Shown here: positions 24,494 to 52,332 of the stretch, in pieces
How positions within the stretch are numbered: the first letter of the stretch is position 1
Layout: each line of letters starts with the position of its first letter
DNA from: an uncultured delta proteobacterium
GTDB lineage: Bacteria; Desulfobacterota; Desulfomonilia; UBA1062
NCBI GenBank assembly: GCA_963752595.1
Contig: CAVVYZ010000030.1
Location: 96,001 to 160,000 of the forward strand
DNA length: 64,000 nucleotides
Direction: 5' to 3'
The notes under the pieces: generated by a model
Databases searched by the model: none
Told to the model about the DNA's origin: nothing
Seen by the model: the letters and a program-made list of their open reading frames with translations, nothing else
Translations under genes and position numbers: made by a program

Positions 24494-24500
24494 CTCATGA

Positions 24501-28548: not shown

Positions 28549-28572
28549 GTATTCGATTTAACGAATAACCAA

Positions 28573-29877: not shown

Positions 29878-30162
29878 AGAAATGAACATAAGCCTGGGCA
29901 AGAATCGTTTAGGATTCAGATGAATAATTGCCGCTACTATAATTGCGTTCAATATGAAGCGGTCATACTTTGCGGGGTTAAGGCAGCCTGCACATGCAAC
30001 GGCTTTCTAGGGACAGGTGTGTCCGGAGCATGGAAATACTACCGGATATGAGAGAATTGGGGATGATTTTGGCTGGGAATTGAGACCTTTTTCTTGAGAA
30101 ACTGATGAAAAAATACCAATCACCCCCAGATAAACGCTTCTTGCCGGATTGCGCAAAGGTCT
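29860..30162 (+). repeat. ~300 bp direct repeat of 38433-38735 (78-bp micro-MITE plus IS5 3' end and right IR)
   Basis: Near-identical by eye from TATTGCAGCGGCAATT to CGCAAAGGTCT; one G/A difference seen near the IR. Confidence 0.95.
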
Positions 30163-30328
30163 TACATTGGCATAATTTAAACGACATCGCTATCAATGTA
30201 TTTGCGAAAAAGAAGCCGCGGACTTTGTTTGTTCAAACCTCTCAATATATTTGGAATAATAACGAAAGATATTATGTTACATGGTACTAGCCTAAACCAA
30301 TAAAAATAATTATAAGGTAAAATAAAAA

Positions 30329-31489: not shown

Positions 31490-31596
31490 ATTAATGAAAA
31501 GCAGGGTATTATTAAATATACACTAGATCAACTTAACAATGTTTCGATCCTAAAAAATATTGGTTCTATGACCTATTTATTTGCGATGATAATAAG

Positions 31597-32223: not shown

Positions 32224-32341
32224 TGCCATAAATTATGAGAGAGGTTGTTCTATCCATACTAAATAAGTGCATGCAAAAAATGACACAGTGCGCAATATAT
32301 GCCCATTTATTAGTAACCTTTTTAAAGGCTAGGATTAGAGT

Positions 32342-33222: not shown

Positions 33223-34094
33223 GGGTGTGTTTGCAAAGCTCATAACCAGAGGAATATAGCACCGATGACCCACATGGAGCGATAACTGTCTGCTCGTTTA
33301 TCATATCTTGTTGCTATGGAGCGGAATTGTTTGAGCCTGTTGATGAGCCGTTCGATCCGGTTTCTCATCCGATAGGCTGCACGGTCGAATGGGCCACCCC
33401 GTTTATTATTGCTCTTCCTCGGGATCGTTACATGGATGCCATGTTTCTTAAGATACTCTCTGATCCACTGGGCGCTATATCCCTTGTCTCCGACGATGCG
33501 TTCGGGGCGATTTCTTGGTCTCCCTCCATGGAGCCGATTGATCGACCCATGTTCCATAAGGTCAAGGAAAGCTGTGGTGTCATGAGCTTCGCCGGGAGTA
33601 AGGGCAACCGTTATCGGTTTGCCTTCCCCTTCCGCCCGGAGGTGGACCTTGGTCGAGAACCCACCTCGACTACGGCCAAGAGCCTCTTCTCTCTGCCCCC
33701 TTTTTTTGCACCCGCTGCATTCTGGTGTGCTCTTACAACCGTGGTATCAACGAAATGGACCTCCCAATCCACATTTCCTTCCGAATCCGAGTCGGCCTGC
33801 AGCTCAGAGAGTATCCGGTCCCATACCCCGGCATCTCTCCACCTGCGAAAACGACTGTGTATGGTCGACCATGACCCGTATCTCTCCGGGATATCCCGCC
33901 AGGGCGCCCCGGTCTTTACCTTCCAGAGGATCCCGTTGATGATCTTACGATGGTCTTCCGCGGGCCGTCCTGTTTCTGGTTTCCGGGCCGGGAGATATCC
34001 TTTGAGCTTTTCCCATTGCTTCTCTGTGAGTTCATGCCTTCTGTTCATTCCTATTTTGATGCTGTGGCTTAGTATTAAGTTTGCACACACACCG
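33223..34094 (-). mobile_element. IS5-family (IS427 group-like) insertion sequence
   Basis: IRs GGTGTGTTTGCAAA (33224) and TTTGCACACACACC (ending 34093); two-ORF transposase inside. Ends are accurate to about 2 bp. Confidence 0.88.
33240..34048 (-). CDS. IS5/IS427-type transposase (OrfA+OrfB) joined by a -1 frameshift at A7G
   Basis: OrfA LTEKQW..TGAPWRDIPERYG..VDTTVVRAHQ. The -1 frame reads ALGRSRGGFSTKVH..GDKGY..YRMRNRIER..LKQFRSIATRYDK without further interruption. Confidence 0.9.
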
Positions 34095-34170
34095 TAGTTG
34101 AATGTGGACACTTATTTGTCTAAAAATATCTTATAAATCTGAATTATTGGATCAAGGGATGTAAATATAA

Positions 34171-34907
34171 GTGAAGTTAAATTCAACATCTGGGATACTC
34201 TATGTTCGCGCAAGTCTTAGTCCATTTTCTGAACATATTAAGAGCGCAGGTGGCGTTATCGAGTTTTTCACCAATCTTTTTTGTTTGATGAAATTATCGT
34301 ACCGCATTTTTTTAGAGCGCGGCCATTTTGGCAGCCAGCATCACACTTGCCTAAGGTAACTAATTCCGGCTCATTAGGTAAAATGGTGGCTAATCATGAG
34401 CAAGCTTTTGTCAGTAGACACCCCTCACATAGTTTTGCAGGCATCGGCCCACGCGTGACTAATGTTCTTGAAATGCATGACTACAATTCATCGTGTTTTT
34501 TCCCGATATCAGAACTTGCTGCACGATACGATTTTTCTATGTTGTTGCTAGCATGTGTTAAAGAAAGTCCCGGATTCTCAACGGTTCATGCTGTTCAATA
34601 TGAACTTGGCCTTTCTCAAAAACATCTTATCAGGCATTTACTTAGATGGGACATAGATCTGGGTGATAGGACTAGAAGTATTAAGGCGCATGAGTCACCC
34701 GGTTGTAGCCAGTCATTTGATAAGTTCTACCCTTTTTATGAAAATGATGGAAATCTTATTCGCGGAGAATTGTTCGGCAAGTCTTATATTTTCATTAAAT
34801 CGGCTAGGCAGGCAATGAAATCAGAGAGGGAAATTTTAAGAACCAATCCCCGTTTTGTAGATTGCGGTAGCCTGATCTGCTCTACGTGTAGATTTCGTCT
34901 TTACTAA
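34171..34907 (+). CDS. AAC(3)/Antibiotic_NAT-family acyltransferase; one frameshift at a T6 run (34277-34282)
   Basis: YVRASL N-terminus in the first frame; IIVPHF, SRHPSHSFAGIG, LLL, STVH, GCS..F, C-terminal C....C..CR in the second. Confidence 0.72.
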
Positions 34908-34914
34908 GGATATC

Positions 34915-36060
34915 ATGTATATCTTTTCATCCGAAATTAAAGTGCCTTGTGGGTGTTGCCTAGGGGGATACGGTGATTGTACTATCGATAATATAAATAA
35001 GGGAGGTTCTTTGCATGCAAATGGTCTCGGGTTCAAAGAGTCAGCAAATCCAAGATTTATTGAGGTTTGTTCGATAGATGCGTTGTATCCGGGTGATTTG
35101 GTAATGCGACAAGCTAACCCGATGATTCAGCGAATTTTCGCTGCGTCACATACGCACTTTGCGCCAATGCTTGATGCTACAAAACCAAGTTTAGGTCGGC
35201 ACTCACCAGATATGGTTGCATCGTTTGAGCATGCAATCGAAGGTGCAACAAGAGAGAGAATTGAACCAAATCAATGTCTAATTTTCAGAGGGGAGGTCAA
35301 GTTACCAATCTATCGTCGTTTTGATTACCCCAAATCATTTGTTAACAATGTGTTGACACGACATGCTGGTCTGTTTCCAAATGAAGCCCATGAAGTTGAT
35401 AGAGGTATCTATATCTTTCTTTTTCTGAATGGTTCGACTAATTTATTTGTGATCACTTACCATGCGTGTCATCCCGTAACTAGGCACGATATAAAAGCCG
35501 TGTCAGCAGATTATGTAGATGCAATCCGACACGGTATATTTGAACGTTTTGGAACATCGCATTGCTTGTTTTTCTTAGGATGTGCAGGGGATATCCGGCC
35601 CAACTTTGCAAAAAAAAGAGTGATGTGGTTTCCGAAAAACCGGTTTAATTGGCGATTTAAGTATCCACCATCAGAGATGGATCAGGATGAAGCAGATCAG
35701 CAATATCTGAATGCTGTCTATACTGCGAGCCCAATAGCCTCATTTTCAGTGAATGGTTCCGATTTTATTTACAAACTCCGAAATCTTAATGTGCATGGTG
35801 TTGGTAACATATCTGTTCCCGAAGTTCACATAGGGAAATACGTGATATTTTCTTTCTTTCCATTTGAAATGTCGCATCGTTTTCACCTGGCAACGCGCTT
35901 GAATAAGGCGATGCCTTTGAAATTCATAGTTTCCTGTTCAAATCATACGTTGGGCTATCTACCTTATCCAAATCAGCTTTCTTCTGGCGGTTATGAAGTT
36001 GATGGTTCACGGAGAGATATGGGGCTTAAAAACCGGCTGCTCTTAAAGGAGACCTTTTGA
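34915..36060 (+). CDS. Neutral/alkaline ceramidase-like amidohydrolase
   Basis: LGGYG, SIDAL, ASHTHFAP, YHACHP, SADY, GCAGDIRP, GYLP...GGYE motifs. Confidence 0.65.
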   Translation: MYIFSSEIKVPCGCCLGGYGDCTIDNINKGGSLHANGLGFKESANPRFIEVCSIDALYPGDLVMRQANPMIQRIFAASHTHFAPMLDATKPSLGRHSPDMVASFEHAIEGATRERIEPNQCLIFRGEVKLPIYRRFDYPKSFVNNVLTRHAGLFPNEAHEVDRGIYIFLFLNGSTNLFVITYHACHPVTRHDIKAVSADYVDAIRHGIFERFGTSHCLFFLGCAGDIRPNFAKKRVMWFPKNRFNWRFKYPPSEMDQDEADQQYLNAVYTASPIASFSVNGSDFIYKLRNLNVHGVGNISVPEVHIGKYVIFSFFPFEMSHRFHLATRLNKAMPLKFIVSCSNHTLGYLPYPNQLSSGGYEVDGSRRDMGLKNRLLLKETF

Positions 36061-37373: not shown

Positions 37374-38736
37374 GAGGCCTTTGCACAAATCCGGCAGTTC
37401 CGGGGCGAGACGCAGAGCCGATTATCAGCGATAATGGCATTTAATGCAATGATAATATTGATCAATTATGGTACATTCTTTCCATCTTGTGAATCAAGGG
37501 GAGGGATGGAATGGGATTCAAGGAGTACGAGAGGAACATGAGTTTTCTGGATCTTGAATTGAGCAAGACATTGGGGTCTTCGAGGACGCAGCGGTTTTTG
37601 AAGGAGATCCACGATCATATCAGGTGGGAGCCGTTGGAACGTATCCTGAAGGGAGTCTACCCGGTGGGGAAGTCGGCAGTGGGCAACAGTGCCTATCCTC
37701 CGGTGATGCTTTTAAAGGCGTTAATGCTGCAGAAGTGGTTTGGGATCAGGAGTGATCCTGAACTGGAGAACCAGATCAACGATCGGATATCATTCAAGGT
37801 ATTCATCGGGCTGCCTTTTGGGAACCCATCTCCAGATCACAGTGTGATTTGTCGGTTTCGTGAGCGGGTTGGCAGTGGATGCGAGGCTGGTGAGATCGGC
37901 ATCGAGCCCTTTAAGCAAGGACAAGCTTGAGAAGGTGCGTGAAGATCGGGAGCAGAAGGAACAAGAGGGGATAGGCAAGCCGATAAAGTTCAGCCGGGAT
38001 CTGGAATCTGACTGGACAGTGAAGAATGATAATCCGGTCTATGGGATGAAGGAGCATACGTCTATTGATGTAAAGAGCGGGCTGGTATTATCGATGGTGC
38101 TCTCGCGAGCATCCGAGCATGACACGAACTATTTACAGTATGTGGTAATCAAGGGGATTCATACAAAGAAGCTGCCGCCGAAGGTGTGGATAAGGGGTAT
38201 CATGGGCAAGTAAACCGTGAGTTCTTGCATATCAATGGGATAGCAGACGGGATCATGCGCAAGGATGAGAGGAATGCAAAGCTGACAGAGCTTGAGGTAG
38301 AGCGAAACAAGATGATCGCGAAGGTTCGCTATAAGATCGAGCAGTATTTTGGGGTCACAGCCCTACACCAGGGAGCCTCCCGAGCCCGGTTCACCACTCT
38401 TGCCCGGGAGGGATGGGACAGAATCTGCCAGGTATTGCAGCGGCAATTAAAGAAATGAACATAAGCCTGGGCAAGAATCGTTTAGGATTCAGATGAATAA
38501 TTGCCGCTACTATAATTGCGTTCAATATGAAGCGGTCATACTTTGCGGGGTTAAGGCAGCCTGCACATGCAACGGCTTTCTAGGGACAGGTGTGTCCGGA
38601 GCATGGAAATACTACCGGATATGAGAGAATTGGGGATGATTTTGGCTGGGAATTGAGACCTTTTTCTTGAGAAACTGATGAAAAAATACCAATCACCCCC
38701 AGATAAACGCTTCTTGCCGGATTACGCAAAGGTCTC
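37374..38736 (+). mobile_element. IS5-family element, degenerate (internal ~80 bp deletion, small deletion, MITE insertion)
   Basis: IRs GAGGCCTTTGCACAA / TTACGCAAAGGTCTC. Transposase pieces from 37511: LQKWFG..SDPELE, PDHS..RFR, VDA, GMKEH, DKGY, RYKIEQYF. Confidence 0.92.
38435..38512. mobile_element. 78-bp micro-MITE with TA target duplication; second copy at 29862-29939
   Basis: IRs TTGCAGCGGCAATTA / TAATTGCCGCTACTA, flanked by TA on both sides. It interrupts the transposase codons Q-V-I-A-F, which are uninterrupted in the copy near 51200. Confidence 0.82.
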
Positions 38737-38747
38737 GGGGTATCTTT

Positions 38748-39386
38748 ATGTTTAAAATAGGTAGAGTTTTAGTTTTGGCACCGCATACGGATGATGGGGA
38801 ATTCGGTTGTGGGGGCACGATAGCAAAGTTGATTGATGAAGGTAAAGAGGTTTATTATGTTGCTTTCTCTGATTGCGAGAAATCGCTGGACCCCGGCATG
38901 GCACCGGATACGCTCGTTAAAGAATTAATGAGTGCCACAAAGGAATTAGGTATTCCGGAAGGGAATGTTCTTGTCAAAAAATATGAGGTCAGATGCTTCG
39001 GCAGAGATAGGCAGGATATATTAGAAGACATGGTATATTTTAACAAGCATATGAATCCTGACATAGTGTTCCTTCCATCACCTAAGGATCTGCATCAGGA
39101 TCACAACACAATTGCAATGGAAGGGCTGCGGGCATTCAAACTGACTTCAACTATCCTCGGTTACGAGGTGCCATGGAACAACCTTTCCTTTAACACGACA
39201 AGCTTTGTGACGCTGAGCGAAGATAATATAAATAGAAAAATTGATGCATTAAAATGCTACGAATCACAAACCAACCGTTTTTATTCATCTGGGCAATTCA
39301 TAAGATCATTAGCCATAACACGAGGAACACAAATCGGTACACAATATGCGGAGACTTTTGATGTACTCAGGTGGATCATTAGATAA
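38748..39386 (+). CDS. PIG-L/LmbE family N-deacetylase
   Basis: LAPHTDDGEFGCGG and HQDH metal motifs; K..AL..YESQ. Confidence 0.92.
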   Translation: MFKIGRVLVLAPHTDDGEFGCGGTIAKLIDEGKEVYYVAFSDCEKSLDPGMAPDTLVKELMSATKELGIPEGNVLVKKYEVRCFGRDRQDILEDMVYFNKHMNPDIVFLPSPKDLHQDHNTIAMEGLRAFKLTSTILGYEVPWNNLSFNTTSFVTLSEDNINRKIDALKCYESQTNRFYSSGQFIRSLAITRGTQIGTQYAETFDVLRWIIR

Positions 39387-39433: not shown

Positions 39434-40768
39434 ATGGCGAGTATATTAGACAAAATTGAACTGCTAAGTTATCAAGAGCACTATGAAAAAGTTGATAAAT
39501 ATTTACTGATCAATCAACTAAAATATGTAATGGAAAACAGCCTATTCTATTATGATAAATTCAAGAGTTCCCGCGTTAACACAATTCCGTCAATAGATGC
39601 GTTTTTAGATTTACCATTTACAGATAAGCGTGAAATTCTTGATGAGCAAGCATCATATCCCCCCTTTGGCAGACTGGCGATTGGCAATGATGTACGTTCG
39701 TTAAGAAGGGTTCATGTGACTTCTGGTTCAACTGGGAAACCGGTATATATCATTTTAACGGAGAATGATTTAGCGGCAACAGTTGAAGCTGGAGGAAGAG
39801 CTTTTAGGTGTGCTGGATTAACGCCTGATGATACAGTGATTCACTGTCTGAACTATTGCTTGTGGGCTGGTGGTGTTACAGACCACCTCAATCTGGAAGC
39901 GACAGGCGCAACGGTAATCCCTTTTGGCGTCGGAAATACGGTAAACCTCATACGAACCATTCGTGATTTGCATCCGACGGCAATATCCTGCACACCATCA
40001 TATTTATCGCGTCTTGAGTATGTATTAGAAAAAGAGTTCAACGTGCAACCGCCGGAACTTGGCCTTAAGAAAGCCCTCCTTGGCGGTGAGGGTGGCGTTC
40101 AAGATACCAAGGTGCGATCAAGAATTGAGACAACATGGAATTTGCGAGCGATTGATGCTAACTATGGCATGGCAGATGTGCTTAGTATCTTTGGATCAGA
40201 ATGTGAAACAAGAGAAGGTATGCATTTTCATGGGCAGGGTATTCTTTATCTTGAACTAATTGAACCGGAGACAATGAAAGTACTCTCTTTAGAAGATGGA
40301 CAGGTGGGTGAAATGGTTTTGACAACTTTAAAAAGAGAAGCACAGCCTCTTGTCCGCTATCGAACTGGTGATGTGGTGAGAATTGTCTCAACAAAACAAT
40401 GTAAATGTGGGAGGTCATCATTTAGATTTGTCGTTATTGGAAGAACTGATGAGATGATTGTGGTGCGGGGTATAAATGTTTTTCCATCCGTGATAACAAA
40501 TATTTTATCAGAACGCCCCGATTGGTTCACTGGTGAATATGAATTTGTGTTGGACAATCCGCCTCCAATTGAAAGACCTCTTTTAAGAATTGAACTTAAG
40601 GCTACAAACATCAATGCGGCGGATAGAACTATTGAATCATTCATTCAAAGAAAATGTAGAGAGAACTATAATTTTACGCCCCGCATCCAATTATTAACTA
40701 TAGGCACCTTACCGAGGACGGAAGGTAAGTCCAAAAGGCTTAGAAGGGTTTATCAGGAAAAGGAATGA
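39434..40768 (+). CDS. Phenylacetate-CoA ligase (PaaK)-like adenylate-forming enzyme
   Basis: LPFTDK, TSGSTGKP, CTPSY, YGMAD, PLVRYRTGD, GRTDEM..RGINVFPS, GKSKR. Confidence 0.9.
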   Translation: MASILDKIELLSYQEHYEKVDKYLLINQLKYVMENSLFYYDKFKSSRVNTIPSIDAFLDLPFTDKREILDEQASYPPFGRLAIGNDVRSLRRVHVTSGSTGKPVYIILTENDLAATVEAGGRAFRCAGLTPDDTVIHCLNYCLWAGGVTDHLNLEATGATVIPFGVGNTVNLIRTIRDLHPTAISCTPSYLSRLEYVLEKEFNVQPPELGLKKALLGGEGGVQDTKVRSRIETTWNLRAIDANYGMADVLSIFGSECETREGMHFHGQGILYLELIEPETMKVLSLEDGQVGEMVLTTLKREAQPLVRYRTGDVVRIVSTKQCKCGRSSFRFVVIGRTDEMIVVRGINVFPSVITNILSERPDWFTGEYEFVLDNPPPIERPLLRIELKATNINAADRTIESFIQRKCRENYNFTPRIQLLTIGTLPRTEGKSKRLRRVYQEKE

Positions 40769-40900: not shown

Positions 40901-41791
40901 ATGCCTGTCACAAGTTCGGACGTAGCACATTTTTTAGAGAAAAAATTAAATGGGGCTTCCGTATCTATTGATAAACCTGCTGATTTGAATGAATGTGGCT
41001 CGTCAGATATTGTGTGGGTCAAAAAGTTTAGTCCTGAGCGTTTAAGCATCTTGGAATCGAGGCGGCCAGGTTTAGTTATATGTGATGAGACAACATCTCA
41101 GAATACACTTGTTTCAAACATTATATCTAATAACCCACGCTTGGATTTTATCAAGGTTATGAACCATTTCTTTTCACGCCCACCCAAAATAGGAATTCAT
41201 CCAACCGCAATTATTGAAGAAGGCGCTATATTAGGAAGCAACATAAGTATCGGTGCATACTGCTGTATCGGAAGCCAGGTGAAGATAGGTGATAATTGTG
41301 TGATACATTCTGGTGTTGCGATTGAAGGTAAAGTTCACTTGGGAAGACAATGCGTAATTAAATCAAATAGCGTGATAGGCGGTGAAGGCTTCGGTTTTGA
41401 ATATGATGAAGATGGGAATCCAATACATTTCCCGCATATTGGAAGAATAGAAATTGGAGATGATGTCTGGATTGGTGCATGTTCAACAGTTGAAATCGGT
41501 GCTCTCGGTGCAACAGTAATTCGTAATGGATGCAAGATTGATGATTTAGTCCAAGTTGGTCATAATGTCATCGTAGGCAAAAATACGCTTATAATGGCCA
41601 ATACGATAATTTGCGGCGGTGCGATTATTGGCGAAAAATGTTGGATTGCTCCTAATAGCGTTGTAAAAGAGAAAATCAGGATTGGCAATAGGGTGACTAT
41701 CGGCCTTGGTTCTGTAGTAATCAGAAATATTGAGGATGACATCATAGTCGCTGGTGTACCGGCAGCGCCACTTAAGCCTAAGAATAAGTGA
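40901..41791 (+). CDS. LpxD-like left-handed beta-helix acyltransferase (paralog 1)
   Basis: NPRLDF, IHPTAII, GGEGFGF, PHIGRIEIGDDVWIGA, KIDDLVQVGHN, AGVPA; no C-terminal helical domain. Confidence 0.88.
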   Translation: MPVTSSDVAHFLEKKLNGASVSIDKPADLNECGSSDIVWVKKFSPERLSILESRRPGLVICDETTSQNTLVSNIISNNPRLDFIKVMNHFFSRPPKIGIHPTAIIEEGAILGSNISIGAYCCIGSQVKIGDNCVIHSGVAIEGKVHLGRQCVIKSNSVIGGEGFGFEYDEDGNPIHFPHIGRIEIGDDVWIGACSTVEIGALGATVIRNGCKIDDLVQVGHNVIVGKNTLIMANTIICGGAIIGEKCWIAPNSVVKEKIRIGNRVTIGLGSVVIRNIEDDIIVAGVPAAPLKPKNK

Positions 41792-41835: not shown

Positions 41836-42732
41836 ATGTATAGAATTAAAAGAATAGAGATTTGGGCATCTGAGATAGCGGAATACCTCAATAAGCCATT
41901 TGTGGGAAAGGATTTTATCATAAAAGATCTCCATTCCATTAAAACTAATAAATCTTTCATAAATCATTTAACTGCAAACGATGAGATTAAAGATGATATT
42001 TTAGTGATATCTAAGGCGCCATTTGATCAACTGAAATGTGGAGGATACATAATATCAGAAAACCCAGATCTTGATTTAGCCTACTTGCTACGAGAATTCT
42101 TCACGGTTTCGTCAATCAGTGAAGTACATGAAACTGCAATTATAGCTGAAAATGCGAAGATTGGTCGCAATGTCATGATAGGCGCAAACTCTGTCATCGG
42201 TGATGATGTTGTCATTGGCGACAATACAAAAATCTTGAATAATGTAGTTATAAATGGTCCCGCGGAGGTAGGCAAATTTTGTATAATTAAGGATGGTTCT
42301 ATTATTGGCAGCGAAGGGTGGGCATTTATTAATGATGAAGATGGTATACCTCTACATGTTCCGCAAGTGGGCCGCATCTTGATTAAGGATAGAGTTTGGA
42401 TTGGGTCAAATGCTACAATAGAACGAGCAATGATTGATGAGACGATAATAAGCGAGAATGTAAAAATTGATGACCTTGTACATGTTGGTGGAGGATCTAT
42501 TGTTGGGGAAAAAGCTCAATTGACCGCAGGCGTGGTGGTCGCCTACTATGTAAATATTGGCCTTTGTACAGTAATAGCACCCAATGTGGTCATTAGAGAG
42601 CATGTTAACATTGGTGATAATGTATTGGTTGGACAAGGGGCTGTTGTCATTTCTGATCTTGAAGGTGGTAATGTATATGTAGGTAATCCGGCACGTTTTC
42701 TTAAGAAGAATGTAATAATACATGGACGGTAA
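41836..42732 (+). CDS. LpxD-like left-handed beta-helix protein (paralog 2)
   Basis: NPDLDL, VHETAII, GSEGWAF, PQVGRI..VWIGSN, KIDDLVHVGGG, VGNPA. Confidence 0.85.
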   Translation: MYRIKRIEIWASEIAEYLNKPFVGKDFIIKDLHSIKTNKSFINHLTANDEIKDDILVISKAPFDQLKCGGYIISENPDLDLAYLLREFFTVSSISEVHETAIIAENAKIGRNVMIGANSVIGDDVVIGDNTKILNNVVINGPAEVGKFCIIKDGSIIGSEGWAFINDEDGIPLHVPQVGRILIKDRVWIGSNATIERAMIDETIISENVKIDDLVHVGGGSIVGEKAQLTAGVVVAYYVNIGLCTVIAPNVVIREHVNIGDNVLVGQGAVVISDLEGGNVYVGNPARFLKKNVIIHGR

Positions 42733-42734
42733 AT

Positions 42735-43820
42735 ATGGAAAAGGATATATTTAAAGAAAAGATAACGCCTTTCCTCCAGGAAAGGCTTGCTAACCTCGAA
42801 TCCTCTTATGGTAAAGAATCAGCCGCTTATAAAGGCCTTGCACTTCAATATGTAAGAAGTAACATGGAGAATATTGAAACAGAAGAATGTAATTTGAAAC
42901 ATTATGAAGCGGGCCTGGAAGCACAAGAGTTATCAGATGGTGTGCCTGGAATTGAAAGATTATACAAAAAAACCATAGTCGTTGAACCAACCCTCATTTG
43001 TCTTGCACATTGCCGGTATTGTTTGCGGAGTAATTATAAGAAACATACGCTTACAGAAAAACAACTTATTGAGATAGCAAAGTATTGTGGTAATGAAATG
43101 AATCGCATAAGTCTCAATGAAATGCTGATTACCGGTGGTGACCCCCTTATTGTACCGCAAAGGCTTGAGGTGCTTTTGAATGCCTTGATTGAATATGCCT
43201 CTAATATAAAAATTATCAGAATTGGTACGCGGGTGCCAGGTCACGACCCAAGAAGAATTGATGAAAGCATCGTTGCCCTTTTTAAAAATAAGCCCACATT
43301 ACGATTTGAACTTGCCACTCAGATTAATCATCCCATAGAATTTTTCCCGGAAGTTCAAGAAGCCTTTAAGAAGATCAGTGAGTTAGGGGTTAAAATATAT
43401 GCGCAAAATGTTCTATTAAAAGATGTGAACGATAATATCGATACGCTTAATGAACTATATAGCGAAATGAGAGGAAATAATATTGAGGCACACTACCTCT
43501 TTCATTGTATCCCCATGATTGGAATACATCACTTGAGAACCAGTATAGGAAAAGGATTGGACTTAATCAAAGAATTGGTCTGTTCTGGAAAAATCTCAGG
43601 CCGGGCTAAACCAATGTTTGCGGCTATGACAGACATTGGGAAGATTACATTCTATGAGGGAGTTATTCAAAAAAGAGAAAATGGACGTGTTCTTTTGCAA
43701 AGCAATTATCGTTATGTGGATAGATTGAAATGGAATCCATCATGGCAGCTACCCAAAACGGCAGAGATTGATGAAAATGGTTTATTACGGGTTTGGTATG
43801 TCGATGGCGAAGACTCATGA
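42735..43820 (+). CDS. KamA-family radical SAM/PLP 2,3-aminomutase-like protein
   Basis: PGIERLY, CLAHCRYCLR, LITGGDPL, RIGTRVP, QINHPIE, QNVLLKDVND, SG..P.F...GK. Confidence 0.9.
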   Translation: MEKDIFKEKITPFLQERLANLESSYGKESAAYKGLALQYVRSNMENIETEECNLKHYEAGLEAQELSDGVPGIERLYKKTIVVEPTLICLAHCRYCLRSNYKKHTLTEKQLIEIAKYCGNEMNRISLNEMLITGGDPLIVPQRLEVLLNALIEYASNIKIIRIGTRVPGHDPRRIDESIVALFKNKPTLRFELATQINHPIEFFPEVQEAFKKISELGVKIYAQNVLLKDVNDNIDTLNELYSEMRGNNIEAHYLFHCIPMIGIHHLRTSIGKGLDLIKELVCSGKISGRAKPMFAAMTDIGKITFYEGVIQKRENGRVLLQSNYRYVDRLKWNPSWQLPKTAEIDENGLLRVWYVDGEDS

Positions 43821-45118
43821 GAATTTGGTTGGTTTCTATAGGTGAACCAATACCAACAAGCTCTGACAGTAATTCTCGATTGCTTCGAACAGGATATTTT
43901 GCTAATTTACTGTCACAATATGGCCATGATGTAATCTGGTGGTCTTCTGCATTTGATCACTTCAGAAAAAAGCAGCTTTGCACTACGGATAACGATTTTA
44001 TTATTAATCAGAATCTTACTATAAAGCTTTTGTGTGGCTCAGGATACAAAAGTCATGTGTCGCTTAAGCGGGCCTGGGATCACTGGATAATCTCTAGGAA
44101 GTTTTCTTCGGCCATTAGGAAGGAGATTATACTTCCGGATCTAATTTTAGCTGCATTACCTACGATAGATCTCTGCTATGAATCAGTTGTGTTCGGGAAT
44201 CAACATGGCATACCAGTAGTTCTTGATATGCGAGACATGTGGCCAGATATTTTTGTTGATCTCGCTCCTGATTTCTTAAGACCATTAACACGACGCCTTT
44301 TAAGTTATCAGTTTCGGAAAGCTGGATACGCATGCGAAAAAGCCACGGCTATTGTTGGGATAACGGATGAATTTGTTGTATGGGGTTTAAAACGGGGACA
44401 ACGTAGCTGGCAAGAATTCGACAAATCATTCCCCTTTGGATATTCGATTCAGGCCACAACAAGAGAATCAGAGGACAAAGCATATATTGAACTCAGTCGT
44501 CGAGGAATTCGTTTCGATGACAACAACTTATATGCTCTTTATATTGGATCGCTCAGTCGCAATGCAAAGTTAGGTGATATCATATCTGCAAGCAGAATTC
44601 TTTATGAGCAAAACTCGAAATGGCAGTTTATTGTATGTGGCGATGGTGATTGTGTTGATCTAATAATAAATCATGCTAGCAAATATCCAAATGTAAAATA
44701 CGGGGGTTGGGTAGATAAAAATTTGATTCATGGTCTAATGCGACGATGTCATGTTGGGTTAAATCAACTTCCTGATCGATACGATTTTCTTGCCACCATC
44801 AACAACAAAGCCATTGAGTATATGAGCGCGGGACTCCCTATTATTTCAAGTCCGGATCGGGGTGTTCTATGTGAGCTTCTCAAGATGCATGAGTGCGGGA
44901 TAAGTTATTCTTCTGGTGATGCTGCTGCTCTAGCTGCGACGCTTTCACGATTTTATGATGACCGGGATATGCTAAGGAAAATGTCACAGAACGCCATGCT
45001 GCTCTTCCAAAAACGGTTTCCCGCAGAAAAGGTTTATACAGAGATGATGGAGCATTTGGTGATGATAGCGGAAAATACAAAACAGAATCAATCTTTTAGA
45101 ACAAGACACCAATTTTGA
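43817..45118 (+). CDS. Glycosyltransferase family 4
   Basis: MRIWLVSIGEPIP, DMRDMWPD, NKAIEYMSAGLPII. Confidence 0.9.
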   Translation: MRIWLVSIGEPIPTSSDSNSRLLRTGYFANLLSQYGHDVIWWSSAFDHFRKKQLCTTDNDFIINQNLTIKLLCGSGYKSHVSLKRAWDHWIISRKFSSAIRKEIILPDLILAALPTIDLCYESVVFGNQHGIPVVLDMRDMWPDIFVDLAPDFLRPLTRRLLSYQFRKAGYACEKATAIVGITDEFVVWGLKRGQRSWQEFDKSFPFGYSIQATTRESEDKAYIELSRRGIRFDDNNLYALYIGSLSRNAKLGDIISASRILYEQNSKWQFIVCGDGDCVDLIINHASKYPNVKYGGWVDKNLIHGLMRRCHVGLNQLPDRYDFLATINNKAIEYMSAGLPIISSPDRGVLCELLKMHECGISYSSGDAAALAATLSRFYDDRDMLRKMSQNAMLLFQKRFPAEKVYTEMMEHLVMIAENTKQNQSFRTRHQF

Positions 45119-45145: not shown

Positions 45146-46072
45146 ATGAACAGACAGGACGACATTATGATTGACAAGAAAATACAGCAGAAAATTGAGT
45201 ATAGGCCCTCTCTGGCTGGGCGCCTGGCAAGGATTTTCATACCATTGCTTCAAGCAATACTTCCGCCAAAGGCATACAGAGTGATCTATGATGGACTCTA
45301 TAAGGGCTACAAACAGATTCTCAGAGCGAGCTATGTAGTAAGGGTACTCGAAGCAAGACTCTTTGGTGATCGGGAGCAGCAGTTAAAGACATCACTCACA
45401 CGACAGTTACTCCCCTACAGCATGGGAGGATGGAAGGCGCTCGAGAATGCATTCGAAGTTACTGCGTTTGTCGAACAAAAAAAAATCGAGGGAGCCTTGG
45501 TTGAGTGCGGTGTAGCTGAGGGGGGTACTGCTGCGATGATGGCTCTGACAAATCTGGAACTTGGAGCGAATACGCGACAAAAGTGGTTTTTCGACTCCTA
45601 TGAAGGCCTACCTGAGCCAACTGCTGAAGACTACGAAGGCGGTAAAGCGGGCCATTTTATTCGTCCACTTCAAAAAGGGGCATGTCTAGGGACCATTGAG
45701 CAAGTCAGTGATTTGATGTTCGATAAATTACACTTGCCCAAGAATGAGGTTCATCTGGTGAAGGGCTGGTTCCAAGACACGGTGCCCGTTCATCGTGAGA
45801 AAATAGGGCCAATTGCTGTGCTGCGTCTGGATGGTGACTGGTACGAGTCCACCAAGATACCACTGGAATATTTCTTTGATCAGATTAGTGTTGGCGGCTT
45901 TGTAATCATTGATGATTATGCAACTTGCTTCGGTTCTCATAAGGCGGTGGATGAGTTTCGAGCAGATCGCAATATTACTACCCCATTGCGCCCTGACGGG
46001 CGGGGAGGTGCTTGGTTTGAAAAGCCGACCTCAGACAACAGATTCAAGAAGAACGAGGCAAGCTTCGGGTAA
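45146..46072 (+). CDS. TylF/MycF/NovP-family sugar O-methyltransferase
   Basis: GALVECGV..GG, FDSYEGLP, VKGWFQDT, LRLDGDWYEST, GGFVIIDDY. Confidence 0.92.
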   Translation: MNRQDDIMIDKKIQQKIEYRPSLAGRLARIFIPLLQAILPPKAYRVIYDGLYKGYKQILRASYVVRVLEARLFGDREQQLKTSLTRQLLPYSMGGWKALENAFEVTAFVEQKKIEGALVECGVAEGGTAAMMALTNLELGANTRQKWFFDSYEGLPEPTAEDYEGGKAGHFIRPLQKGACLGTIEQVSDLMFDKLHLPKNEVHLVKGWFQDTVPVHREKIGPIAVLRLDGDWYESTKIPLEYFFDQISVGGFVIIDDYATCFGSHKAVDEFRADRNITTPLRPDGRGGAWFEKPTSDNRFKKNEASFG

Positions 46073-46090
46073 TGTACCCAGAGAGAGTAA

Positions 46091-46777
46091 ATGAATAAAA
46101 CCGGATTAATAGAAGCTCAGACTACTTGTACAGGAGGACAGATAAAATCCGTCATCCATCCCGCTTGGGCGCTGGTTCTAAAGCGGTCGTTCGATATGGT
46201 GTTTTCCTCGTTTGTACTCCTTTTGATATGGCCGTTGATTGGGGCAGTGGCTATTGGCATTAAGTTGTCCAGCCCTGGGCCGGTCTTTTACAGAGGCGTA
46301 AGGACAGGCTTACACGGGAAACCTTTCCGAATCATCAAATTCAGAACCATGATAGAAGGTGCCGAATCTCTGGGTGGGCCTACTACAGGCACTAACGATC
46401 GGAGAGTAACCCGTATTGGCTCCTTCCTCCGTCGAACCAAGATCGATGAACTACCCCAGTTCCTGAATGTCTTGTTGGGGGATATGAGCCTAGTTGGACC
46501 TCGCCCAGAAGTGTTTGAATACACGGCAAATTACGAAGGTGAGGAAAAATGCATTCTTTGTATGCGCCCTGGTATAACTGATTACGCGTCAATAGAGTAC
46601 GCCGACCTTGATGATCGTGTGGGGAGTAGAGATCCAGACAGGTACTTTCGTGAACATATCCTACCCCACAAGAATGCATTACGGATCAAATATGTGAAGG
46701 AATGGTCCCTTGGCTCAGATTGCAATATTCTCTGGGTGACCTTTTGCCGGGTCGTGAAGAGGATTGCTGTTCAATGA
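46091..46777 (+). CDS. Small monotopic phosphoglycosyl transferase (bacterial sugar transferase, PglC-like)
   Basis: [43 protein letters not shown]. Confidence 0.92.
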
Positions 46778-47724
46778 GCATTTTGGAGACAATGCATCTG
46801 GGTAATACTGGTCCTTATGCCAGTCGTCTTGGTATGGGCTGTTGGGCAATAGGCGGTCATGGGTGGGGAAAGGTGAGGGAGGAGGAATCCATCCGGGCTG
46901 TAAAGTGTGCATTAGATAGTGGAGTCACATTTTTTGATACGGCAGATGTGTATGGGCTTGGGAAGTCAGAAACATTATTAGCAGATGTGCTGGGCTCATC
47001 CCGCACAAAAGTTGTGATTGCAAGCAAAGGGGGCGTCCGTTGGAACGATAGTGGGCATATATGGACAGATATCTCACCGACCTACCTGAGACTAGCTATA
47101 GAAAATAGCCTTAAAAGATTGAAACTGGATTGCATTCCCCTTTACTATATTCATAAATTTGATGATATAACCCCTGTACAAGAGAGTATTGCAGCCCTTG
47201 AGCGTATGCGTAAGGAAGGTAAGATCGGGTCTATCGGTGTTTCGAACGTCTCTTCCGATCAACTGTTACAGGCCTTGCAGGTTGCACCGGTAGCAGCGGT
47301 TCAGGTTCGGTTGAATATCTTTGATCGAGATGCGAGTAAGGATTTATTCGACATTTGTAAAAGGCAGGGCATTACACTTGTTGCTTGGGGCGCACTTGCG
47401 GATGGACTATTAACCGGTAAGTTCAAGGCCGATATGAAGTTCTCAGACGACGATCATCGGAGCAGGATGCCAGAATTTAAAGGGAAATTATTTCTGGGAT
47501 ATAACAGATGCATACAATCGCTTGAGCAGGTGGCTACCGAAAGGGGACGCCGGGTTGGCCAACTTGCACTTCGCTGGGTCTTGGATCTTGAGCCTTTTAC
47601 ATGTGCGCTTTTCGGCGCAAAAACGGATACTCAGGTAACTGAGAATTTGGGCGCGGATGGGTGGAGCTTAACAAAGGTAGATCTCACAGCTATCGATTCC
47701 ATTGTGGGTAAGTTTGGAAGATGA
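46774..47724 (+). CDS. Aldo/keto reductase
   Basis: LGMGCWAIGG, DTADVYG.G.SE, SLKRL..D.I.LYYIH, IGVSN, GLLTGK. Confidence 0.92.
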   Translation: MSILETMHLGNTGPYASRLGMGCWAIGGHGWGKVREEESIRAVKCALDSGVTFFDTADVYGLGKSETLLADVLGSSRTKVVIASKGGVRWNDSGHIWTDISPTYLRLAIENSLKRLKLDCIPLYYIHKFDDITPVQESIAALERMRKEGKIGSIGVSNVSSDQLLQALQVAPVAAVQVRLNIFDRDASKDLFDICKRQGITLVAWGALADGLLTGKFKADMKFSDDDHRSRMPEFKGKLFLGYNRCIQSLEQVATERGRRVGQLALRWVLDLEPFTCALFGAKTDTQVTENLGADGWSLTKVDLTAIDSIVGKFGR

Positions 47725-47725
47725 T

Positions 47726-48703
47726 ATGACTTTCTCAATCGATGCATTATATGATTTGTATAAGACCATGCTTCGCATACGCTTTTTCGAAGAGGGCCTG
47801 GTGGAACCCATCCTGAACAGAGAAATCCACACGCCCTGCCATCTTTACAGTGGTCAGGAGGCTGTAGCCGTTGGCCTCTGCAAAGCCCTTTCCCAGGATG
47901 ATTATATCTTCGGCAACCACCGTTCGCATGGCCATTTCCTGGCCAAAGGAGGTTCCTTGCAGGCCTTGGCGGCCGAGATCTACTGCCGGGAGACCGGCTG
48001 CTCCCGGGGCCGTGGTGGTTCTATGCACCTGATCGATCCCACAGTGGGCATGCTTGGTTCGGCGCCAATCGTGGCCGGGACCATCTCCCTGGCTGTAGGC
48101 GCGGCCCTTGCCTCTTTGATACGAAAGGACGGCCGCGTGTCCGTGAGCTTTTTCGGGGATGGAGCTACCGGGGAGGGTGTCCTGTATGAATCCATGAACT
48201 TCGCCGCGCTAAAAAAACTCCCGATCATATTCGCCTGTGAAAACAATCTATACGCTACCCACATGCACATCCGGGAGTGCCGCGTCAACCAGCCGATCCG
48301 CAAGATTGCCGAACCCTTCGGGATTGATAATCATGAAGTGGATGGGAATGATGTTCTGCAGATCTACGGTAAGGTACGACAGGCCGCAGAGGCCTGCCGG
48401 AAGGGAAATGGTCCGGTTTTCATGGAGTTCTTGACCTATCGCTATCGCGGCCACGTAGGGCCGGATGACAATATCCAAGGGCTCCATACGGATATCAGAC
48501 CCCAAGAAGAGTTAACCCAATGGTTTGAGAAAGACCCGATCCGGAGACTTGAGCGGCACCTCATGGAACACCATTTGATGGACGAGCAAGATCTGCTGCC
48601 TATCAAGGATGAAGCAGAAAAAGAGGTACGGGAAGCTAAGGCGTACGCAGAAAACAGTGCACGACCGAGACTTGAGGAGATGGCCAAATATGTCTTTGCA
48701 TAG
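47726..48703 (+). CDS. ThDP-dependent dehydrogenase E1 alpha-like subunit
   Basis: HLYSGQEA, HRSHGH, GRGGSMH, GDGA..EG..ENN ThDP motif, TYRYRGH. Confidence 0.93.
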   Translation: MTFSIDALYDLYKTMLRIRFFEEGLVEPILNREIHTPCHLYSGQEAVAVGLCKALSQDDYIFGNHRSHGHFLAKGGSLQALAAEIYCRETGCSRGRGGSMHLIDPTVGMLGSAPIVAGTISLAVGAALASLIRKDGRVSVSFFGDGATGEGVLYESMNFAALKKLPIIFACENNLYATHMHIRECRVNQPIRKIAEPFGIDNHEVDGNDVLQIYGKVRQAAEACRKGNGPVFMEFLTYRYRGHVGPDDNIQGLHTDIRPQEELTQWFEKDPIRRLERHLMEHHLMDEQDLLPIKDEAEKEVREAKAYAENSARPRLEEMAKYVFA

Positions 48704-49670
48704 AGAATTATCCTACAGTCTGGCGATCAACGAGGCGCTCCATCAAGTGATGTCGATGGACCCCTCAGTCTTCCTCATCGGGCAGGGTGTAAAAAGTCCC
48801 TGGTATGTAGGAAATACTGCCCGTGGTCTCATAGAAAGATTTGGAGAACGTCGGGTGATTGATACACCTGTATCCGAGAACGGCATCACCGGGGCAGCCG
48901 TTGGGGCGGCTATCGCTGGCATGAAACCGGTGGTGGTCCATCCCAGGATAGATTTCATGATGTATGCCATGGATCCAATCATTAACGAGGCGGCGAATTG
49001 GTTCTATATGAATGGCGGCCTGGCAAATGTTCCGGTCGTTTTCTGGGGCATCATCAACCGGCGGGGTGAACAAGCGGCCCAGCATTCACAGGCTCTTCAT
49101 GCTGTCTTTGCCCATGTTCCCGGGCTCAAAGTGGTCATGCCCGCCACTGCTTATGATGCCAAGGGACTGATGGTCGCTGCCATTCAGGATCCCAACCCCG
49201 TTGTTTTTATAGATGAACGATTGCTCTACCACCTTGAAGAGTCTGTTCCGCAAGAGATATATCGCGTAGAGATCGGTAAGGGTTGTATCCGCAGAGAAGG
49301 AAAAGACGTAACGGTTGTGGCAGTTTCACTGATGGTTCATGAGGCCATAAAGGCGGCTCATGAACTTGTCGACGATGATATTGATGTAGAAGTCATAGAT
49401 TTAAGGACCATCAAACCGCTTGATCGAAAAATAATAATGGATTCAGTCCATAAAACAGGACGGCTTGTTGTTGTTGATGTTGGCTGGCGATCATTTGGTG
49501 TTTCGGGGGAAATTGCTGCCTTGGTAGCTGAGACAGCCTTTGAGTCTTTGAAGGCACCAATTTTGCGAGTTGCTCTCCCCGACTGCCCGGCGCCGGCCAG
49601 CATGATGTTGGAAGATGAATACTACCCGACAGCAAGAGATATTGTTGAAGCGGTACGAAGACTCATGTAA
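48690..49670 (+). CDS. ThDP-dependent dehydrogenase E1 beta-like subunit
   Basis: DTPVSENG..G.A.GAA, AAQHSQ, PGLKVVMP, DLRTIKPLD, KTGRLVVVD. Confidence 0.93.
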   Translation: MSLHRELSYSLAINEALHQVMSMDPSVFLIGQGVKSPWYVGNTARGLIERFGERRVIDTPVSENGITGAAVGAAIAGMKPVVVHPRIDFMMYAMDPIINEAANWFYMNGGLANVPVVFWGIINRRGEQAAQHSQALHAVFAHVPGLKVVMPATAYDAKGLMVAAIQDPNPVVFIDERLLYHLEESVPQEIYRVEIGKGCIRREGKDVTVVAVSLMVHEAIKAAHELVDDDIDVEVIDLRTIKPLDRKIIMDSVHKTGRLVVVDVGWRSFGVSGEIAALVAETAFESLKAPILRVALPDCPAPASMMLEDEYYPTARDIVEAVRRLM

Positions 49671-50056: not shown

Positions 50057-51426
50057 GAGACCTTTGCACAATTCCGACAGATCTGGGGCGAGGTATAGAG
50101 CCGATCATCAGCGGTTATGGCATTTAAGGCAATGATAATATTGATTAAATATGGTATACTCTTTCCATCTTATGAATCAAGGGGAGGGATGGAATGGGAT
50201 TCAAGGAGTACGAGAGGAACATGAGTTTTTTGGATCTTGAATTGAGCAAGACACTGGGATCTTCGAGGACGTAGCGGTTCTTGAGTGAGATCCATGATCA
50301 TATCAGATGGGAGCCAGTGGAGAGGATACTGCTTGGGGTTTACCCGGTAGGGAAGTCTTCAGTGGGCAATGTAGCCTATCCCCCTTTAATGTTATTAAAG
50401 GTGTTGATGCTGCAGAAGTGGTTTGGGATCAGGAGTGATCCTGAACTGGAGAATCAGATCAATGATGGGATATCATTCAAGGTATTTATAGGTCTACCCT
50501 TTGGAGATCCGTCTCCTGATCACAGTGTGATTTCGCAATTTCGGGATCGGGTGGGCAGCAAGGCGATGGAGAAGATACACGCAGAGCTGTTGAGTCAGTT
50601 GCGGTCAAAGGGTTTTTTCGATCGATGCCGGTCTGGCGGTGGATGCGAGATTGGTACGTTCGGCATCGAGCCCATTGGGCAAGGACAAGATTGAGAAGGT
50701 GCGTGAAGAGCATGAGCACAAGGACAACAAAGGGGGGATAGGTAAGCCCGTGAAGTTCAGCCGGGACCTGGAATCTGACTGGACGGTGAAGAACGATGTG
50801 CCTCTTTATGGGATGAAGGAGCACGCGTCTATTGATGTAAAGAGTGGGCTGGTACTATCGACGGTACTCTCGCGAGCATCGGAGCATGACACGAACTATT
50901 TTCAGTTTGTGGTGATCAAGAGCATGCACACCAGGAAGATGCCGCCTGTGGTGTATGCGGACAAGGGCTATCATGGGCAGATGAACCGTGAATTCCTGCA
51001 TATCAATGATATGAAAGACGGGATCATGAGGAAGGATGAGAGGAACGCGAAGCTGACCGAGCTGGAGATAAAGCGCAACAAGATGATCTCGAAGGTGAGG
51101 TATAAGATTGAGCAGTATTTTGGTGTGACAGCACTCCACCAGGGAGCCTCGCGAGCTCGGTTCACTACCCTTGCGAAGGAGGGGTGGGACCGGATGTGTC
51201 AGGTTATTGCGTTCAACATGAAGAGGTCTTACTTAGCGGGGTTAAGGAAGCCGGCGCATGCAGCTGCATGCTAGGGACAGGTGTGTCCGGAGCATGAAAA
51301 TGCTGCCGGATATAAGGGGCTTGCGGATGATTTGGCAGGGAATTGAGCTCTTCTTCTTGAGAATTTGATGAAAAATTACCAATCAGTCCCAGAAAAAAGC
51401 TTCTTTCTCGATTACGCAAATGTCTA
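50057..51426 (+). mobile_element. IS5-family element, full length but inactivated (nonsense codon plus frameshift)
   Basis: IRs GAGACCTTTGCACAAT / ATTACGCAAATGTCTA. Transposase 50194-51274 has TAG at 50272 (CAG in the 37.5 kb copy) and a frameshift in a T run near 50615. Confidence 0.92.
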
Positions 51427-51441
51427 AATCTTTGGAAAAGA

Positions 51442-52332
51442 TTATGGCCGCTTCTTGTCCGGCCAGGAATACCAGCTGTCAAAAAGCACATACCCTGCGG
51501 TGATTCCCTGGGATATTGCTCTTTTCAACATCATAAGGGCAAGCTCAAGCTTGGTATACATCGAGGCTTCCCTGCTCATCTGACCACTGATGCTCCGGGC
51601 ATCGCCGATACGTTCTTCAGGACTCTTTGGATGACGTTTCTTTCCGTATTTATAGGAAAAGTCCAAAGCATACATCCCCTTGCCTGTGAAGAGGCCGAGC
51701 ACGACAACAGTATAACCAAGCACCGAGCGGTTCACGGTATGATCATGCAAGAAAGATACGTTCTCAATATCTCTGCCCCTCTTGGAGAGTATGCTATCGT
51801 CAAGTATGAAGCATCTCTCCTCTATAGGTGCCTCGTCGAACTTCAGAACCCTCCGGATCTCCTTCATGATATAGTACAGAAACGATCGCCAGCGGTATCC
51901 CCTGGCCTTGAACCGATAAAAGGTGTCCTTCCTGCTGCTTGTGTACTGCTCAAGGTGATTGCGGCAGAAGCTCCGAACAGTACGTATTTTCAGCAATGGC
52001 AGAAGTACCAGCACGAACAGGATCTGTGCTGCATGATACCCATCCTTCTTGATAATCTTCGCCTTGTTCATCTGCGTCCTGAATCCAAGCCGACTCAGTC
52101 CTTCGTCAATCTTGGTCTCAAATATCCGCCCCTCTTTATCCAAGTATTCCTCGATTTCTCCTTTGAACGCTTTGCCCGGTGTGATATACATGATCAGGGA
52201 CTCCTTTGCGGTGTATTGTTTGTCTTATCAACAACTTATATACCACAAAAGCGAGTCCCTTTCACCATTTTCCTTGCTGTTTTATTGACTTTTCTCACCC
52301 CATCCCTTCAAATAAGGGTGCGAAACTTGAGT
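51442..52332 (-). mobile_element. Truncated IS4-superfamily (DDE) element: 5' half of the transposase (start 52191) plus left end
   Basis: SRKDTFYRF, ILDDS..KRG..IE.VS..HDH, YVLFDSWY. The ORF stops shortly after the second Asp; IR-like ACTCAAGTTTCGCAC on the minus strand at ~52332. Confidence 0.8.

Follow-up and report, generated by a model that had tools for sequence, protein, structure and literature searches.

A separate clade of lysine 2,3-aminomutase-like radical-SAM proteins that lacks both lysine-site aspartates and has carboxylate-activating gene partners

Introduction

Lysine 2,3-aminomutase (LAM, or KamA) binds the side-chain amine of its substrate through two aspartates, which we take to be Asp293 and Asp330 of the Clostridium subterminale enzyme. 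What would an enzyme of this kind act on when both are replaced, and what would its product be for? The question is raised by P0001, the product of an intact 361 aa open reading frame (ORF) at 42735–43820 of a 64 000 nucleotide stretch of DNA, here called the window, from an uncultured delta proteobacterium (GenBank assembly GCA_963752595.1, contig CAVVYZ010000030.1, positions 96 001–160 000). P0001 has the fold and the cofactor residues of LAM, a radical S-adenosylmethionine (SAM) enzyme that uses pyridoxal 5'-phosphate (PLP). Hydrophobic residues stand at both lysine-site positions, its relatives form a clade of their own, and its gene has ligase and acyltransferase partners. The curated radical-SAM 2,3-aminomutase families compared here act on charged amino acids (lysine, glutamate or arginine), and if a natural enzyme that takes an uncharged aliphatic substrate were confirmed, it would widen the chemistry of the family.

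A lysine 2,3-aminomutase fold with conserved cofactor residues

When P0001 was used to query 5.8 billion proteins, 781 matches were returned at E 1e-30, the best 120 of which were 53–91% identical to it. These 120, together with 118 matches to a second query, 16 representatives and 73 genome loci, were pooled into 323 distinct sequences. The 16 were the top ones among 150 representatives and nearly all are full-length family members; the 73 loci came from a set of 80, from which seven outgroup loci were left out.

The sole sequence relative of P0001 in the PDB was C. subterminale LAM (2a5h; phmmer E 3.7e-28). An AlphaFold model (AF2, 107-sequence alignment) had a predicted local distance difference test score (pLDDT) of 92 and matched 2a5h with a Foldseek E of 1.3e-22. 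In VIA, the model and 2a5h aligned over 296 residues with a Z of 31.5 and a root mean square deviation of 3.1, while the next fold had a Z of 15.0. Over the structure the two share 25% identity. An initial annotation of the window, made from the sequence alone, had reported a CxxxCxxC motif followed by a conserved arginine, and a candidate PLP lysine in DIGK. Both are borne out, as C89/C93/C96 with Arg98 and as Lys303, which aligns to LAM Lys337 (Table 1). The counterpart of Arg98 in LAM is Arg134, presumably the carboxylate-binding arginine. R162, R166, D136 and Q224 are also near-invariant across the pooled relatives, and P0001 thus has the equivalents of LAM Arg134, Asp172, Arg198, Arg202, Gln258 and Lys337.

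Both lysine-site aspartates are replaced

In the phmmer alignment to 2a5h, Asp293 is replaced by Ile259 (codon 43509) and Asp330 by Met298 (codon 43626). Among the pooled relatives that have a residue at position 259, this was V, I, L, C or A in 322/322; position 298 was M, L, I, V or Q in 322/322. As no D, E, K or R was found at either position, the substitutions are not due to chance. The comparators were 12 of at least 54 proteins that exceed the glutamate-aminomutase cut-off, nine that exceed the arginine-aminomutase cut-off, three that exceed the KamA cut-off (including the copy in this genome) and Escherichia coli EpmB. In the columns of LAM 293 and 330, these carry D/D in KamA (3/3), D/E in EpmB, K/N in the glutamate family (12/12) and D/T in the arginine family (9/9).

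The loop before the PLP lysine is two residues shorter in P0001 than in 2a5h, and the register at Met298 was controlled using proteins with the same shorter loop, namely three relatives linked to efp and epmA (L074, L076 and L078) and the nine arginine-family proteins. The Met298 column holds Asp in 3/3 of the former and Thr in 9/9 of the latter. Because relatives with the same loop read Asp in this column, Met298 and not Asp300 occupies the Asp330 position. Asp300 was considered as a shifted Asp330 and ruled out, as its column is Arg or Gln in the efp/epmA-linked relatives that keep Asp at 298. The replacement of Asp293 by Ile and of Asp330 by Met, as mapped in the initial annotation, is therefore correct, and alignment with LAM, EpmB and the glutamate and arginine aminomutases, which it had proposed as a check, placed an acidic residue at neither position.

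Further differences from LAM are Tyr290 to Phe, Arg116 to Thr, Leu120 to Glu, Trp226 to Glu and Tyr287 to His, and the N- and C-terminal motifs are also different. P0001 would be expected to work like LAM, yet it lacks the residues that define the lysine, EpmB, glutamate and arginine families and falls short of their score cut-offs. It scored 130 bits against TIGR03820 (KamA/AblA; cut-off 525.4), 138.7 bits against TIGR00238 (cut-off 199.2), 115.8 bits against TIGR03821 (EpmB; cut-off 369.3), 127.3 bits against TIGR04368 (glutamate 2,3-aminomutase; cut-off 650) and 125.6 bits against TIGR04468 (arginine 2,3-aminomutase, BlsG type; cut-off 600). The glutamate enzymes also lack both aspartates and share with P0001 Phe290, His291, mostly Gln230 and a polar residue at 120 (LAM numbering), but have Lys and Asn where the P0001 family has Ile (or Val) and Met. 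The arginine enzymes have likewise lost Asp330 but, unlike the P0001 family, keep Asp293.

The initial annotation had also remarked that the protein is short and lacks the C-terminal cysteine zinc region of LAM. This is true (the cysteines of P0001 are at 52, 89, 93, 96, 118, 258 and 283) but uninformative. E. coli EpmB, the KamA of this genome and all nine arginine-family proteins likewise have no zinc tail, and among the comparator tails displayed a cysteine cluster was found only in L084 and L093. Its absence was therefore rejected as a special feature of the family.

The family forms a separate clade

A quick maximum-likelihood tree was made of 96 rows. Those of the family, 70 in number, made up one side of a branch with a Shimodaira-Hasegawa-like approximate likelihood ratio test (SH-aLRT) support of 100 and were distinct from the groups of glutamate, arginine, KamA and EpmB enzymes. 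The tree omits five fragmentary loci and 14 redundant comparators, and one long branch (L073) adjoins the clade. The nearest group outside it is the efp/epmA-linked lineage, whose efp and epmA neighbours exceed NCBIfam cut-offs. This lineage shares the short loop and a C-terminal extension with the family and keeps both aspartates. EpmB (D/E) and the efp-linked lineage (D/D) sit with efp, whereas the family sits with ligases and acyltransferases. The efp/epmA-linked lineage is probably an EpmB analogue in small-genome bacteria. The genome that includes the window also holds a separate, canonical KamA with both aspartates.

Carriers of the family were found across many bacterial phyla and in the archaeon Nitrosopumilus, and cultured carriers include Geomonas oryzisoli, Shewanella eurypsychrophilus, Streptomyces gobitricini and Dongia deserti. 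The Nitrosopumilus copy (L043) has LpxD-like and nonulosonic-acid genes in the same locus. No match of more than 35% identity was found in 40 relatives of this genome, 11 in its genus, and no plasmid match was found for the family. The ESM Atlas returned only automatic names for family members. Four KamA-like proteins of approximately 820–850 aa (P0160, P0164, P0167 and P0170) contain two matched stretches and have different residues at 293 and 330; they form another branch. In L069 (9944–11037), the aminomutase is split over two frames in an otherwise complete cassette.

Partner genes activate carboxylic acids

In the window, a Wzx/Wzz polysaccharide locus contains a run of genes for a PIG-L deacetylase, a PaaK-like ligase and two LpxD-like proteins that ends with the P0001 gene. 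This last gene starts 2 nt past the stop of the upstream LpxD-like gene, which ends at 42732, and its own stop is overlapped by the ATG, at 43817, of a glycosyltransferase gene. Over the 73 family loci, many of which end at contig edges, a PaaK-like ligase gene was found within 3.5 kb of the aminomutase gene in 35, a long LpxD-like gene in 25, two LpxD-like genes in five and a PIG-L gene in six. Nonulosonic-acid genes, identified partly by sequence resemblance and Pfam, are frequent neighbours, and one protein (P0122) is a fusion of an LpxD-like protein and the aminomutase.

Partners that activate carboxylic acids recur in four unrelated forms: the PaaK-like ligase; an adenylation domain, found with a carrier-protein-like ORF and an AAC(3)-type transferase beside the aminomutase in L022, L025, L036 and L047; a PGM1-like ATP-grasp peptide ligase; and an ATP-grasp domain fused to the aminomutase in five loci. 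What these forms would have in common is that the product, a carboxylic acid, is activated and then converted to an amide. The PGM1-like ligase is found in Streptomyces (L021, L030, L032 and L059), where it forms a three-gene unit with the aminomutase and a major facilitator superfamily (MFS) exporter, a candidate pathway for a β-amino-acid peptide.

The residues of these partners offer clues to the substrate. The PaaK-like ligase in the window falls below the phenylacetate-CoA ligase cut-off (TIGR02155, 232 against 646). Its Asp150 and Asn243 were present in 32/32 full-length cassette ligases (five shorter ones were left out), while the Asp150 column, presumably part of the lining of the PaaK aryl pocket, holds Ala, Ile or Phe in solved PaaKs and Leu in this genome's own PaaK. 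The single Asp150 of the ligase suits one amine. In the partner adenylation domains, code positions were picked by eye using GrsA numbering. The codes of L022, L025, L036 and L047 read D-P-F-(F/L)-(V/I/L)-T-(V/F/M)-I-(I/V) and those of L057 and L071 D-(L/M)-I-(I/V)-(L/I)-G-V-V-T, in both cases with no charged side-chain residue. The best solved match to the L036 adenylation core was IdnL7 (6akd), which accepts Gly, Ala and Ser according to excerpts of PMC11253843. The same excerpts describe β-selective adenylation domains as having bulkier residues at 236 and 301 and a loop shorter by one residue, and Pro236 and Thr301 of the L022, L025, L036 and L047 domains fit this pattern.

Two compact actinomycete clusters, in Micromonospora sp. 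CP22 (L071/L121) and Saccharopolyspora kobensis (L057/L123-L124), contain genes for TetR, MFS, the aminomutase, a ketosynthase III, a small carrier-protein-like ORF and an IdnL7-like adenylation domain, and face a single-module reducing polyketide synthase and a thioester reductase. No known product was recognised for these clusters.

In Dongia and its kin (L018, L027, L038 and L042), stand-alone copies lie in a conserved housekeeping neighbourhood that includes no ligase gene. The aminomutase was found in 9/61 Dongia relatives searched. A role for stand-alone copies as a substitute for panD in β-alanine supply was considered, but the comparison was uninformative: panD was not found in 9/9 carriers, nor in 47/52 non-carriers. 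In five carriers tested, panC was present and panD absent, and panD was not found in the genome that includes the window, which is 84% complete.

Proposed function

We propose that P0001 acts on a free, uncharged L-amino acid by radical-SAM, PLP-dependent LAM chemistry and that the resulting β isomer is attached to an amino sugar of a surface polysaccharide, a reading to which we give a probability of roughly 60%. By homology, P0001 would work as a LAM-like homodimer in which the substrate forms an external aldimine with PLP, the 5'-deoxyadenosyl radical takes the C3 hydrogen and the amino group moves to C3. The gene context suggests that the PaaK-like ligase would activate the β-amino acid, probably as a coenzyme A (CoA) thioester, with Asp150 holding the amine, that the PIG-L enzyme would free a sugar amine, and that the His-bearing LpxD-like subunit would form the amide with it. 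The ligase and acyltransferase cassette would thus explain what the product is for. Transfer by the LpxD-like protein is the weakest step, because the second LpxD-like protein, like many single-copy partners, lacks the catalytic His.

That the substrate would not be lysine, glutamate or arginine is well supported by the residues at both lysine sites. The initial annotation had proposed a neutral or hydrophobic substrate and, with it, a new specificity. The first part is upheld to the extent that the family differs at both sites from the lysine, glutamate and arginine classes, while the hydrophobic option is weakened by a near-invariant Glu or Asp at position 84, which may face the pocket. Two hydrophobic residues do not prove a hydrophobic substrate; Ile259 and Met298 may simply fill the pocket for a small one. 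As they would occupy the space of the lysine chain, our guess is a small substrate. Alanine, converted to β-alanine, is the best single candidate, and as a specific assignment it is doubtful; 2-aminobutyrate, Val/Leu/Ile/Met and Gln- or homoserine-type substrates share the rest.

Engineered enzymes provide a precedent for alanine. D331/D339 of the Bacillus subtilis and Porphyromonas gingivalis LAMs are presumably the equivalents of Asp330. According to excerpts of PMC9850924, a change of this one active-site aspartate in either enzyme gave alanine 2,3-aminomutase activity, and engineered alanine 2,3-aminomutases (Cargill, US7309597) had a LAM active-site aspartate between PLP and SAM replaced. 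Those are laboratory mutants, whereas in the P0001 family the loss is natural, clade-wide and of both aspartates. If the substrate is alanine, the family would offer ready-made an activity that, in the same excerpts, industry engineered for routes to β-alanine and 3-hydroxypropionate. The order of aminomutase, adenylation and acyl transfer is also the logic of macrolactam starter units (IdnL4/IdnL1/IdnL7 and VinN/VinM; excerpts of PMC11284099), and the L036 and L071 partner domains resemble IdnL7. The differences are that the acceptor predicted here is a surface-glycan amino sugar and that the activator is PaaK-like.

Neither the subfamily nor a β-aminoacyl glycan cassette was described in the open-access literature searched, a scope that takes in few subscription papers and patents, and the proposal, if true, points to a class of β-aminoacyl glycan decoration absent from that literature. 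More broadly, and at clearly less than even odds, the clade may be a natural radical-SAM aminomutase that acts on alanine or on some other small aliphatic amino acid, an activity known to date from engineered enzymes only. At least four unrelated activation systems would then reuse it for β-aminoacylation of surface sugars across many bacterial phyla and in one archaeon, and for undescribed actinomycete peptides and polyketides.

Several points weigh against the proposed function. A nearby PaaK-like ligase gene was not found in 38/73 loci (some of which end at contig edges), and several alphaproteobacterial copies of the aminomutase stand alone. The LpxD His is absent from many single-copy LpxD-like partners, which makes the transfer step uncertain. 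The acid gained by the family at position 84 (Glu or Asp in 304/321) could bind an amine or a polar group near the predicted pocket. The PLP site appears remodelled, since LAM Arg116 and Tyr287 are both changed, to Thr80 and His253. No family member has a known activity or glycan structure. In the partner adenylation domains the short loop of β-selective domains is unclear, with a gap in the alignment to 8xjz and none in that to LgrA. Finally, IdnL7/VinM-type domains activate an α-amino acid that caps a β-aminoacyl carrier (excerpts of PMC11284099), and the partner domains therefore need not accept the aminomutase product.

Alternative substrates

We considered four other readings, which are taken in order of decreasing probability. 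The first is that the substrate is a shorter basic amino acid (ornithine or 2,4-diaminobutyrate), with Glu/Asp84 as its counter-ion and a pocket shortened by Ile259 and Met298. Of the acidic residues gained by the family, Glu84 alone could face the substrate, and it is the chief finding against a pocket that is hydrophobic throughout. An acid at this position was found in no comparator class: the LAM 120 column is Leu or Met in KamA, EpmB, the arginine family and the efp-linked sister group, and Asn in 11/12 of the glutamate family. Glu84 also lies outside the predicted dimer interface, and the ligase Asp150 could bind a distal amine. In viperin and NosL, residues at the same offset from the cluster motif contact the substrate. 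However, Asn (10 sequences) and A, M, T, I, V and Q also occur at position 84, including in L017 and L023, which have a full cassette, and because the glutamate family has Asn in this column, a polar residue there does not imply a basic substrate. The aminomutases of L022, L025, L036 and L047 carry Glu84, and the adenylation domains beside them have no acidic side-chain residue. A short basic substrate is unlikely.

It is slightly harder still to sustain a tethered or sugar-linked substrate (an aminoacyl-CoA, an aminoacyl carrier protein or a nucleotide sugar), with the aminomutase acting after the ligase. The aminomutase sits with activating enzymes and is sometimes fused to one, and a family-specific N-terminal H-Y-E motif (H in 315/317) in the least confident part of the model (residues 51–70, pLDDT 62–68) could be a mobile lid. 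However, Arg98, the counterpart of the presumed carboxylate-binding arginine, is kept in 320/321, and one and the same enzyme is used with activators of unrelated kinds and in clusters other than glycan loci.

A serine or threonine deaminase using PLP-radical chemistry, in which the shifted amine collapses to leave a 3-oxo acid and the group installed by the cassette is oxo- or hydroxyacyl rather than β-aminoacyl, appears improbable. Glu/Asp/Asn84 could hold the C3 hydroxyl, the pocket appears filled, and PhyH 2-oxoglutarate dioxygenase genes lie near the aminomutase gene in six glycan and two actinomycete loci. 3-Hydroxyacyl groups are common on bacterial amino sugars. The partners, however, are activators of the amino-acid type (adenylation domains with the amine-binding Asp and peptide-ligase-type ATP-grasp enzymes), and simpler routes to such acyl-CoAs exist.

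Least probable of all is a lysine 2,3-aminomutase with a pocket rebuilt around Glu84 and Asp300 that makes β-lysine for glycan acylation. In its favour, the sister group of the clade is linked to efp/epmA, which makes β-lysine its probable product, and 'lysine 2,3-aminomutase' is the automatic JGI name of many members. However, both aspartates are kept in that sister group, all lysine-type comparators are D/D or D/E, Asp300 is a turn residue that is Tyr, Ala or Gln in 26/321, and the genome already has a canonical KamA.

The predicted dimer and the PLP end

Of the PLP phosphate site, which we take to comprise Arg116, Arg198 and Tyr287/288 in LAM, R162 and Y254 are kept in P0001. The homodimer prediction scored 0.93 (best of three controls, 0.00), with a pLDDT of at least 90 and runs that agree in at least 97% of contacts. 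The score mark was reached by 20/30 solved pairs and 1/23 single chains, and resemblance to the solved LAM structure may account for the pass. In the dimer model, Arg290 of one copy contacts residues 162, 192 and 222 of the other. A cross-subunit contact between Arg290 and Glu192 would explain the family-specific Glu192, and Arg290 of the partner subunit may replace the lost Arg116 at the PLP phosphate. Glu192, Glu129 and Glu251 were considered as replacement counter-ions and set aside, as the dimer model places all three at the PLP end, within the subunit interface.

Gene context in this genome

Features of the window are listed in Table 1. The block from 38.7 to 49.7 kb is bracketed by two related insertion-sequence copies, and is therefore accessory and probably mobile. 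Further transposase ORFs are at 33240–34111 and 51442–52191.

Table 1. Features of P0001, its gene and the surrounding genes, with positions in the window
Feature	Position	Strand	Evidence or conservation
Insertion-sequence copy left of block, broken transposase frames	37374–38642		83–87% direct repeats with 50057–51333
PIG-L family N-deacetylase	38748–39386	+	PF02585 E 1.9e-15; homologue in 6/73 family loci
PaaK-like ATP-dependent ligase	39434–40768	+	PaaK structures, E 1e-58 to 9e-50
Ligase Asp150 (39881–39883) and Asn243, predicted acyl pocket	within 39434–40768	+	both in 32/32 full-length cassette ligases
LpxD-like left-handed β-helix acyltransferase 1	40901–41791	+	NF002060 230 bits (cut-off 207); His at the presumed LpxD catalytic position
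LpxD-like protein 2	41836–42732	+	NF002060 194 bits (below cut-off); 38% identical to protein 1; lacks that His
KamA-fold radical-SAM/PLP aminomutase-like protein, 361 aa (P0001)	42735–43820	+	phmmer, AF2, Foldseek, VIA
Glu84 (LAM Leu120), acidic, five before first cluster Cys; possible pocket residue	42984–42986	+	E194 D110 N10 of 321
CxxxCxxC cluster motif C89/C93/C96 and Arg98 (LAM Arg134)	42999–43028	+	C89 322/322, C93 321/322, C96 321/321, R98 320/321
Glu192 (LAM Trp226), family-specific	43308–43310	+	E/D in 322/322; predicted contact with partner-subunit Arg290
Ile259 at LAM Asp293	43509–43511	+	2a5h alignment; relatives V190 I124 L4 C2 A2
Arg290, predicted to reach the PLP end of the partner subunit	43602–43604	+	R in 316/322; putative role
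Met298 at LAM Asp330	43626–43628	+	2a5h alignment and comparators; relatives M300 L18 I2 Q1 V1
Asp300, hairpin turn residue	43632–43634	+	between strands 294–299 and 302–305 (AF2); relatives D290 Y22 E5 A3 Q1
Lys303 (LAM Lys337), predicted PLP Schiff-base lysine	43641–43643	+	K in 320/321 relatives and every comparator class
GT4 glycosyltransferase	43817–45118	+	start overlaps aminomutase stop; same position in L001, L002, L005 and L066
Insertion-sequence copy right of block, broken transposase frames	50057–51333		83–87% direct repeats with 37374–38642

Upstream of the block, the genes at 23333–33112 encode a DegT aminotransferase, a Gfo/Idh dehydrogenase fused to a hexapeptide acetyltransferase, Wzz, Wzx and WbuX/HisH/HisF-type amidination proteins. 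They are likely to form a diamino-uronic-acid pathway, a possible source of the acceptor sugar. At 34281–36060, a gene for an AAC(3)-family N-acyltransferase (PF02522) is followed by a 381 aa ORF with no Pfam or NCBIfam match. Downstream of the glycosyltransferase gene, the run at 45146–49670 comprises genes for a TylF-type methyltransferase, a sugar transferase, an aldo-keto reductase and a thiamine-dependent E1 alpha/beta pair, and looks like a branched-chain-sugar module. A similar run was found in L005 and, with the methyltransferase gene missing, in L055.

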